Of a stretch of 46,022 nucleotides of DNA, positions 6,174-6,445 are shown piece by piece. Origin of the DNA: a virus; IMG/VR virus record IMGVR_UViG_3300045988_121014, positions 1 to 46,022 of that record; one strand, written 5' to 3'. The notes under the pieces are model-generated. The model was not told the DNA's origin. It did not search any database and saw nothing but the letters and a program-made list of their open reading frames with translations. Position 1 is the stretch's first letter. The number at the start of each line of letters is the position of its first letter. The position numbers were made by a program, and so were the translations under genes.

Positions 6174-6445
6174 CGTCGGGTGAGGGCTCGACACCCTATA
6201 CTGAGAGCGCCACAGAGCGCCGAACCGTAATGGGGAGGTGGTCTTGTGAGTAAATTCGAGAAACTGTACCTAACCGTCTGCATTCTCCAGCTCATCGTTG
6301 ACCTCTTAATGCTTGGTCTGACGCTTTAATCAACTGACCGTTTAAGCGACTGAGTTCACCGACATTTCGATTATCGCACATCCCAGAAAATAACCGCATT
6401 CAGGAATCCGCCTGAATACGGAGTACCCTCACCCGACGTCGTTTT
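6174..6445 (+). ncRNA. structured transcript/leader closed by a 13-bp perfect long-range stem, followed by TCGTTTT
   Basis: cgtcgggtgaggg (6174-6186) is the exact reverse complement of ccctcacccgacg (6426-6438). Internal hairpin at 6394-6421. Confidence 0.45.
6246..6329 (+). CDS. 27-aa hydrophobic peptide (M)SKFEKLYLTVCILQLIVDLLMLGLTL, type-I-toxin-like or small membrane protein
   Basis: GGGGAGGTGG SD 4 nt before GTG. Charged N-terminus plus one predicted TM helix. Below the ORF-track cutoff. Confidence 0.5.
   Translation: MSKFEKLYLTVCILQLIVDLLMLGLTL

Follow-up and report, generated by a model that had tools for sequence, protein, structure and literature searches.

A short open reading frame (ORF) lies between the early lytic and lysogeny genes of a temperate phage, and the locus raises the question whether this ORF is a real gene and, if so, what its product does. 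The phage is IMG/VR record IMGVR_UViG_3300045988_121014, which was analysed over its whole length of 46,022 nucleotides (the window). A first-pass annotation had proposed that the ORF at 6246..6329 on the plus strand encodes a 27-aa hydrophobic peptide of type I toxin architecture or, alternatively, a membrane peptide made together with the repressor. Our analysis indicates that the ORF is very probably a real lysogeny-side membrane-peptide gene, carried in an mRNA with toxin-like features and antisense to the early lytic leader, and that it is not classifiable as a type I module. For its central element, that the ORF is a coding gene, we estimate a rough probability of 0.85-0.9.

Coding evidence for the small ORF

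6246..6329, plus strand: small gene with GTG start, 27 codons and TAA stop (6327-6329), peptide MSKFEKLYLTVCILQLIVDLLMLGLTL
6232-6241, plus strand: Shine-Dalgarno (SD) sequence GGGGAGGTGG, with its GGAGG core 7 nt upstream of the GTG, invariant in all copies

The ORF reads (M)SKFEKLYLTVCILQLIVDLLMLGLTL, and the spacer TCTT (6242-6245) leaves 4 nt between the SD and the GTG at 6246; the start, spacing and 27-aa reading of the first-pass annotation are exact in coordinates and sequence. The SD falls within a 26-nt block, the most conserved of the cassette, by which we mean the conserved unit of promoter, 5' untranslated region (UTR), ORF, hairpin and closing helix. The in-frame triplet at 6228-6230 is a TAA, and therefore there is no longer form of the ORF. 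In 13 related contigs with listed gene calls, the gene callers left this gap empty; in one further contig, L151, a single gene was called in it, an opposite-strand ORF of 38 aa.

The sequence from the promoter up to 6443 was compared in 24-25 distinct versions, which came from ~15 IMG/VR contigs, 16 metagenome contigs, contigs with an identical repressor/integrase, and two genome-bin phage contigs. Useful divergence came from few lineages, namely the window type, L081/L085, L013/L109/L114, and L003/L110/L115. The first-pass annotation had named conservation of the frame and the pattern of synonymous and non-synonymous changes as one way to check its proposal, and both speak for a gene. None of the related copies from IMG/VR, metagenomes and genome bins has a disrupted ORF (16 distinct nucleotide versions, 8 peptide variants), and no other ORF is shared by all cassette types; the antisense ORFs are present in some and missing in others. 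Among 21 sequences of type A, the peptide type of the window, the 16 variable sites are distributed 7/0/9 over codon positions 1/2/3, and the probability of zero variable sites at codon position 2 by chance is 0.0015. When read in the ORF frame, 12 of the 19 distinct type-A variants are synonymous, compared with 1-10 in the other five frames; against an expectation of 25-30%, this synonymous excess has P ~5e-4 to 3e-3. The seven non-synonymous variants are all conservative (K/E, L/M, Y/H, T/A twice, V/I, and M/I), and the ORF is less variable than the UTRs (16/84 versus 72/219 variable columns, P = 0.02). Twelve of the 16 variable ORF sites are located within codons 1-11; codons 12-28 are almost invariant even synonymously (4/51 sites variable).

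Two other interpretations of these patterns were considered and rejected. An antisense ORF of 53 aa (6295..6134) is not supported as a real gene, because a 17-nt repeat indel shifts its frame, it is absent in L081, and it has another start in type B; its synonymous score arises from shared third codon positions. Nor is the cassette an exceptional island of conservation: the phages are close relatives in which many flanking coding stretches are equally 97-100% identical, and their immunity and first-early-gene modules are swapped.

A diverged version of the peptide, type B (26 aa, MTRYEKLTLLIAILTLVCRIISIVAR), has 46% of nucleotides and 8/26 residues in common with type A. Its ORF starts with a GTG at equal distance from an identical SD, and the N-terminal head M-S/T-K/R-F/Y-E-K-L is common to both types. 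The two hydropathy profiles are correlated (r = 0.81), and the direction of the hydrophobic moment is identical (259 degrees). Both types also carry polar residues at positions 8/15/19/26 (Y/T, Q/T, D/R, and T/R; overlap P = 0.014), which form a polar stripe on one helix face, the pattern expected of a membrane helix that would self-associate or pack on a partner. Since this design has been kept despite the divergence, type B provides independent support for coding.

The peptide was described earlier as a short charged head followed by a single predicted transmembrane (TM) helix, and hydropathy agrees with a hydrophobic single-helix peptide: the grand average of hydropathy is 1.43 for the whole peptide and 2.19 for residues 7-27. 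A membrane helix is the likely product. The type-A peptide ends in ...MLGLTL and type B in ...IVAR, the charged residues being N-terminal, and the net charge is ~+1 in types A and B and -1 in L013. A lipoprotein signal peptide was rejected, because LTVC does not make a lipobox and type B has not kept the Cys.

The evidence above has to be set against the possibility that the frame is untranslated, open by chance or through RNA constraint, or that it is a mere leader peptide or ribosome-sensing upstream ORF. A 27-codon frame stays open by chance with a probability of (61/64)^27 ~0.27, and the ORF is clearly under RNA constraints too. The family has also diverged little, most copies coming from closely related phages, so that the selection statistics rest on few lineages, which counts against the coding interpretation. 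However, the six-frame comparison, the lack of changes at codon position 2 and the design of the type-B peptide all favour coding. For a leader attenuator in particular, no plus-strand terminator or antiterminator is found downstream (6330-6569), the U tract of the 3'-UTR hairpin is on the minus strand only, the downstream gene is not fixed among relatives, and the ribosome stop site is 65 nt from the next structure. The leader-peptide reading thus fails its defining features and a non-coding frame is unlikely; taken together, we consider that these explanations have quite a low probability. For a coding gene, the constraint itself is read directly from the alignments, and from it we infer that the ORF is very probably translated.

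Structure and distribution of the cassette RNA

6161..6245, plus strand: 5' UTR with two tandem AGAGCGCC units (6204-6211 and 6214-6221), from repeat search and alignment
6174..6186, plus strand: 5' arm of the closing helix, CGTCGGGTGAGGG, 13 nt, 100% complementary to the 3' arm, 239 nt apart
6426..6438, plus strand: 3' arm of the closing helix, CCCTCACCCGACG, at the right-hand end of the conserved cassette
6258..6287, plus strand: hairpin inside the ORF, GAGAA (6258-6262) with UUCUC (6283-6287) and a 20-nt loop, pairs 117-121/142-146 invariant, including in type B

If the ORF is translated, the next question is how its message is built. The first-pass annotation had described long structured untranslated regions, and two elements found here agree with that description. 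The first is a predicted pairing of the SD. The number of AGAGCGCC units is two in the window and four in L013-, L109-, and L110-type relatives (L013 1506-1541), with periods of 8-10 nt. In three cassette types the last unit is predicted to pair with the GGUG of the SD (its 3' part) and the first base of the start codon, and this helix (columns 72-80/96-105) is invariant except for a G-C to G-U change in 3 sequences.

The second element is the closing helix, which by RNAalifold and direct pair counting comprises 15 pairs joining 6170-6189 to 6423-6443, with a core of 13 bp. Five of its pairs show compensatory double changes between cassette types, and 97.8% of cells are paired; the G-U pairs would be allowed on the plus-strand RNA only. 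Its covariation score was reached by 0/500 shuffles, and slid controls collapsed. A role as a hok-like gate of the SD was rejected, as removal of the 3' arm leaves the predicted accessibility of SD and start unchanged.

Within the ORF, most of the sequence variation is concentrated in the 20-nt loop of the hairpin at 6258..6287. Because this hairpin is kept and codons 12-28 are nearly invariant even synonymously, RNA-level constraints overlap the coding constraint in the ORF.

Determinants of type I toxin mRNAs are a length of 200-400 nt, sequestration of the SD by an anti-SD, and a long-distance interaction between the 5' and 3' ends (T1TAdb, PMC8594479). The cassette RNA, ~285 nt long, lies inside this range and has both kinds of pairing, that of the SD being partial. 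The hairpin within its ORF is a further respect in which it resembles a toxin mRNA of this type. Searches of Rfam at gathering thresholds and at permissive E-values gave chance-level matches only. A mobile element similar to a miniature inverted-repeat transposable element was rejected, since the cassette is never found in another context and its promoter lies outside the inverted repeat.

The related contigs are all ~45 kb and come from human-gut-type samples. In comparison with the window, the L081/L085 type has a different 3' UTR; the L013/L109/L114 type has four AGAGCGCC units, another closing-helix sequence and another promoter spacer; and in the L003/L110/L115 type the ORF and proximal 3' UTR are replaced. 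Right after the 3' arm of the closing helix, relatives diverge or hold an insertion of 0.6-1.1 kb, which in the L013 and L110 types separates the cassette from the leftward early promoter P_L (L013 1765-2900; L110 5440-6030). Downstream of P_L, the insertion carries a cro-like helix-turn-helix (HTH) gene, which window-type phages lack directly behind their early promoter. It also carries the gene of a 137-152-aa protein with a TM segment at its N-terminus; L013 has two further genes there, one for a zinc-ribbon protein (76 aa) and one on the minus strand (93 aa). Consequently the plus-strand gene downstream of the cassette varies, being the repressor, the 137-152-aa protein or the 76-aa zinc-ribbon protein. 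Only the beginning of the early-left operon accompanies the cassette throughout, always antisense: all relatives keep the ribosome-binding site and start region of the first early-left gene beside it, including L013, in which the gene is a different one.

Beyond this set, no DNA similarity was found in GenBank phages or PLSDB plasmids. A search with a 19-mer of the 5' UTR returned ~15 IMG/VR contigs, 16 metagenome contigs and two genome-bin phage contigs, all of the already known set; matches in Bradyrhizobium (L107) and Bacillota (L108) were rejected as chance. A degenerate pattern of SD plus N-terminal motif found nothing beyond known copies, the neighbouring-gene search returned the same contigs only, and upstream of 67 more distant repressor homologues there was no comparable SD-preceded hydrophobic small ORF. 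The repressor of the window phage is present in 154 collection blocks. The two genome-bin phages, L109 (CAVIXF010000341.1) and L110 (CAVDSZ010000014.1), are whole phage contigs of 44-46 kb in metagenome-assembled genomes labelled Gastranaerophilales and Akkermansia muciniphila, respectively; these bin labels are probably binning artefacts and not evidence of the host.

Opposing promoters and the lysogeny module

6126..6154, plus strand: cassette promoter, TTGACA (6126-6131), 17-nt spacer, TG (6146-6147), TATAAT (6149-6154), sigma-70 score 12/12 with TG extension
6473..6501, minus strand: leftward early promoter P_L, TTGACA 6501-6496, TATAAT 6478-6473, 12/12, conserved in relatives
6480..6525, no strand assigned: two operator-like palindromes, CCTAAAATCTTAGGA (6480-6494) and CCTAATTTTTTAGGA (6511-6525), flanking the P_L -35 box
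5801..6094, minus strand: first gene of the early-left (lytic) operon, start codon 32 nt from the -35 box of the cassette promoter
6384..6421, minus strand: intrinsic terminator, 11-bp hairpin 6421..6394 followed by UUAUUUUCU, -16.9 kcal/mol, z -3.2
6370..6378, minus strand: candidate extended -10 (TGcGATAAT, hexamer 6375-6370), tentative, directly downstream of the minus-strand terminator

How the gene is expressed depends on its position between two opposing transcription units. All promoter, terminator and structure assignments given here were made at the level of sequence, and the transcripts are deduced from them. The first-pass annotation had called the rightward promoter strong, in agreement with its maximal sigma-70 score and TG extension; the hexamers and the TG are invariant in 25 distinct copies, the spacer sequence varies by cassette type, and the predicted transcription start is ~6161. 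The cassette promoter and P_L face each other with starts ~305 nt apart, so that the transcripts would be convergent, and the window has face-to-face lytic and lysogenic promoters of the 186/P2 type. In L110 and L013 the promoter spacing is 0.9-1.4 kb, and tight convergence is therefore not conserved.

The operator-like palindromes flank the -35 box of P_L and change along with the repressor type in relatives, so that P_L is the repressor-controlled early promoter. Separately, an 18-bp palindrome-like motif, TGTCA(C/A)-N6-(G/T)TGACA, was observed at 6114-6131, overlapping the -35 box of the cassette promoter. It recurs at 6449-6466, which corresponds to +1 to +18 of the leftward early promoter, and is perfect (TGTCAA-N6-TTGACA) in L109 (~675-700) and L110 (~6325-6345). 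This motif may be a second operator type acting on both promoters.

The first early-left gene begins so close to the cassette promoter (32 nt between its start codon and the -35 box) that the cassette's antisense strand forms the leader of this gene. The earlier claim of a fully complementary antisense transcript, the early-left leader, holds in that the ORF is antisense to this leader; it does not hold for transcripts from P_L, which would meet the minus-strand terminator (6421..6394) after ~80 nt, ahead of the complement of the ORF. With this terminator between P_L and the ORF, antisense RNA would reach the ORF only by read-through or from another start. The 6394-6421 hairpin is credible as a leftward terminator: two of its pairs show compensatory changes in L110, and its plus strand is the 3'-UTR hairpin, which has no U tract. 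As another start, the candidate minus-strand -10 is a tentative promoter of the early-left operon; the hexamer at 6370-6375 is kept in five versions (GATAAT, AATAAT, TATGAT, TACAAT, and TAAGAT).

This arrangement could also be explained by an RNA- or DNA-level insulator of the lysis-lysogeny switch, in which the peptide would be secondary, as in dual-function RNAs. The strong promoter would fire head-on into the early leader (with both interference and a countertranscript as the result), and the minus-strand terminator would stop leaky P_L transcripts, with precedents in the convergent promoters of coliphage 186/P2 and pCF10 prgQ/prgX. The constant antisense neighbour, the two 12/12 promoters face-to-face at ~305 nt, the compensatory changes in the terminator, and the near-invariance of codons 12-28 at synonymous sites (4/51), which indicates RNA/DNA-level constraint, are all in line with it. 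However, it leaves unexplained the codon-position bias, the synonymous excess and the same design of the type-B peptide, and the strong SD at ideal spacing is invariant. As a full account of the locus we consider it rather unlikely; it is compatible with either a toxin-like or a benign peptide and does not exclude them.

The overlap of convergent promoters beside a repressor gene also recalls secreted signalling-peptide precursors that sense lysogen density (PrgQ/iCF10, iAD1, or arbitrium AimP type). The enterococcal inhibitor precursors PrgQ/iCF10 and iAD1 have 21-23 aa with a charged head and a hydrophobic tail and are encoded at a convergent-promoter switch, and the peptide here is similar in size and design. 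However, no RRNPP/AimR-type receptor was identified in the lysogeny module, where the regulator next to the peptide gene is an HTH protein of 112 aa; peptide and repressor are encoded on one strand, the opposite arrangement to pCF10; the N-region of the peptide is not basic (~+1 in types A/B, -1 in L013); and types A and B differ entirely in the C-terminal residues, from which the mature signal would come, while no corresponding change of a receptor was identified. This pheromone-type reading thus fails its defining features, and we regard it as highly improbable.

For a lysogeny-side membrane-peptide gene, the genes that follow on the same strand are of more interest. The window is a complete temperate siphovirus-like phage with an SPP1-type portal, a GH25 endolysin, a primase and a tyrosine integrase; a search for tRNA/tmRNA genes found none. 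Nearly all of its genes are leftward, and the short rightward block 6126-9115 is the lysogeny module, in the order small ORF, CI-like HTH repressor, zinc-ribbon membrane protein, HTH protein and integrase:

6569..6907, plus strand: CI-like HTH repressor gene, 112 aa, from PHROG transcriptional regulator and repressor families and relatives, 3' of the peptide gene on the same strand
6908..7345, plus strand: zinc-ribbon membrane protein gene with two predicted TM helices, lysogeny module
7624..8076, plus strand: Cro/CI-type HTH protein gene with a predicted C-terminal membrane segment, lysogeny module
8081..9115, plus strand: integrase gene, lysogeny module

No plus-strand terminator is predicted between the ORF (6330) and the repressor gene (6569), and inspection of the window revealed no convincing closer promoter ahead of the repressor gene; the peptide gene is therefore probably the first cistron of the repressor transcript. 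The alternative of the first-pass annotation, a membrane peptide co-transcribed with the repressor, is equally compatible with this layout.

Such a peptide could be a benign small membrane protein expressed in lysogens, constitutive as the first cistron, which would make helix-helix contacts with a host or phage membrane protein and involve no toxin-antitoxin logic. It might serve in superinfection exclusion or modulate a membrane protease, transporter or sensor, and the zinc-ribbon protein with two TM helices or the HTH-TM protein next to it could be its partners. This fits with its position on the repressor's strand with no plus-strand terminator between them, with the other lysogeny-side or moron-like genes that follow the cassette in other relatives, with a strong constitutive-type promoter suited to a product needed continuously in lysogens, with the failure to find a dedicated antitoxin, with two membrane proteins being encoded in the lysogeny module, and with the conserved polar stripe at 8/15/19/26. 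Polar stripes are typical of partner-packing TM helices in small regulators such as MgrB, MgtR, AcrZ, and PmrR. However, the anti-SD repeats, the GTG start, the covarying closing helix and the synonymous invariance outside one loop would be unexpected for a benign protein, and we know of no 27-aa exclusion protein. By eye, the peptide type also did not track the TM segment of one partner candidate: L013 and L109 (type A) and L110 (type B) have nearly the same N-terminal segment in their 137-152-aa protein. On balance, a benign protein, the leading alternative to a toxin-like action, is possible and somewhat doubtful.

Several observations concern the module itself. The zinc-ribbon protein (6908-7345) and the HTH-TM protein (7624-8076) are unusual membrane proteins, and either could be a partner of this small peptide. 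A GC-rich hairpin, GCCGCC(CGAA)GGCGGC at 7351-7366, is preceded by an A-run and, read on the plus strand, followed by no T-run, so that its terminator score applies to the minus-strand 51-aa gene (7528..7373) alone; no terminator of its own is predicted for the rightward repressor operon. Downstream of an identical repressor, L135 carries a Mrr_cat-type restriction endonuclease (3789-4394), and in L128/L133 a protein with a Cu_amine_oxidN1 domain (3347-4033) replaces the zinc-ribbon membrane protein.

The type I toxin question and known systems

Is the peptide, then, a type I toxin? Type I toxins are small (<60 aa) hydrophobic proteins with a predicted transmembrane helix, and charged or bulky C-terminal residues are usual, as noted for B. 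subtilis and C. difficile (PMC6563280). The match to type I toxin-antitoxin loci that had been proposed stands in part: the features of the mRNA and the small hydrophobic product, well under 60 aa, agree with it, whereas no dedicated antitoxin was found, and a charged C-terminal tail and homology to known toxins are lacking.

A number of results weigh against this toxin-like interpretation. The peptide has no charged or bulky C-terminal tail. It has no match in Pfam/NCBIfam even at E <= 10, in PHROG at E <= 0.01, or by tblastn against GenBank phages; it matches none of the described toxin families (Fst/Ldr, TxpA/BsrG, Hok, TisB, Ibs/Sho, AapA, and others); and in the searches made, its family is confined to one phage lineage. 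No dedicated antitoxin small RNA (sRNA) unit was found. The only consensus antisense promoter is the repressor-controlled P_L, 0.6-1.1 kb away in L013/L110, and the weak candidate -10 at 6375-6370 is neither preceded by a -35 box nor followed by a terminator ahead of the early genes (first at 6094). Judged by consensus, the promoter of the peptide is maximal and outranks every antisense promoter; in characterised type I systems the balance is the reverse, with the antitoxin in excess. In addition, sequestration of the SD is only partial, its positions being invariant and so lacking covariation support, and in thermodynamic predictions it is independent of the closing helix. From these searches the peptide family appears to be a new one.

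With these points in mind, we propose the following scheme for a lysogeny-side membrane peptide. A consensus, presumably constitutive, rightward promoter on the lysogeny side would transcribe the peptide gene, and local folding of the mRNA would keep peptide synthesis low. The peptide would insert into the membrane, where its polar face would serve for self-association or for binding a membrane protein, and could act like a type I toxin or a small pore-forming peptide. On prophage induction, opposing leftward transcription would change peptide synthesis; in lysogens, the cassette RNA may help to silence leaky leftward transcription. No dedicated antitoxin sRNA would be involved, so that the element would work like a type I module while not being a canonical one. 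We hold the toxin-like action tentatively, as something short of an even chance.

A more elaborate form of this scheme is a dual-function RNA embedded in the switch, in effect a type I toxin module without its own antitoxin gene. In lysogens, the folded RNA from the rightward promoter would be abundant and would keep leaky early-lytic transcripts silent, through head-on transcription and duplex formation; it would also carry a pore-forming peptide that is poorly translated from it. Repressor loss, prophage loss or attack would shift the balance of transcripts, and the peptide would be made or shut off. In this way the lysis-lysogeny decision could be coupled to membrane energisation, with prophage addiction, abortive infection or help in lysis as possible outcomes, and the D19 and R19 peptide types could be functional alleles of the pore. 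We consider this full combination unlikely.

In any case, the locus shows how a conserved micro-gene under selection can go unnoticed in the 'non-coding' control region of phages that are abundant in the human gut. Should the peptide prove membrane-active, the cassette would amount to a type-I-toxin-like module with the early lytic transcript of its own phage as RNA partner, joining RNA antisense control, the lysis-lysogeny switch and membrane physiology in one ~320-bp element and offering a compact, testable model in little-studied gut Bacillota-type phages. If it is benign, it would represent a new family among prophage-expressed small membrane proteins.

Comparison with known systems shows that this kind of element is itself known, while its wiring, fixed in position at the switch and with no dedicated antitoxin found, is a variant that we have not seen described. 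Among the convergent-promoter switches are coliphage 186/P2 pR-pL and pCF10 prgQ/prgX; in the latter, the overlap contains the gene of a 23-aa peptide, and termination is promoted by a countertranscript. The cassette resembles both in its strong face-to-face promoters, the ~300-nt overlap, a 'go' operon that is repressor-controlled and has a terminator near the start of its leader, and the location of the other promoter on the repressor side. It further resembles pCF10 in that a short hydrophobic peptide is encoded in the overlap of convergent transcripts. Unlike pCF10, the peptide here is on the repressor-side transcript and no RRNPP receptor was identified; unlike these switches in general, the early promoter is displaced 0.6-1.1 kb from the cassette in some relatives, and the tight overlap is not conserved.

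Dual-function RNAs include S. aureus RNAIII/delta-haemolysin (26 aa), psm-mec on SCCmec, B. subtilis SR1/SR1P, and E. coli SgrS/SgrT and AzuCR/AzuC. As in these, a structured RNA with a strong promoter carries a ~26-aa ORF, shows constraint beyond coding, and is complementary to a functional transcript. The target here differs from theirs in being cis-antisense, the early lytic leader, and not trans-encoded, and the pairing role is suggested by the layout.

Type I modules are common in Bacillota prophages (PMC6563280, PMC5848175), and the prophage module hokW-sokW is described in one report as affecting phage release (PMC8621323). The peptide resembles the products of the Bacillota prophage modules (bsrG/SR4 and yonT/SR6 of SPbeta, txpA/RatA of skin, and those of phiCD630) as a small hydrophobic single-helix prophage peptide. 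Its ~285-nt mRNA, with SD/anti-SD pairing and a long-distance helix between the 5' and 3' ends, follows the folding paradigms of hok/Sok and aapA1/IsoA1, and as in type I modules a convergent antisense unit overlaps the 3' end, with a terminator hairpin in the overlap. Unlike those modules, the toxin-side promoter here is of consensus strength, and the peptide has no charged C-terminal tail and no sequence homology to their toxins; the role of antisense partner falls to the repressor-controlled early lytic transcript, or to the leader of this transcript, no constitutive antitoxin sRNA having been found. Finally, whereas type I modules may lie anywhere in a prophage, the position of this cassette is fixed at the heart of the lysis-lysogeny switch.

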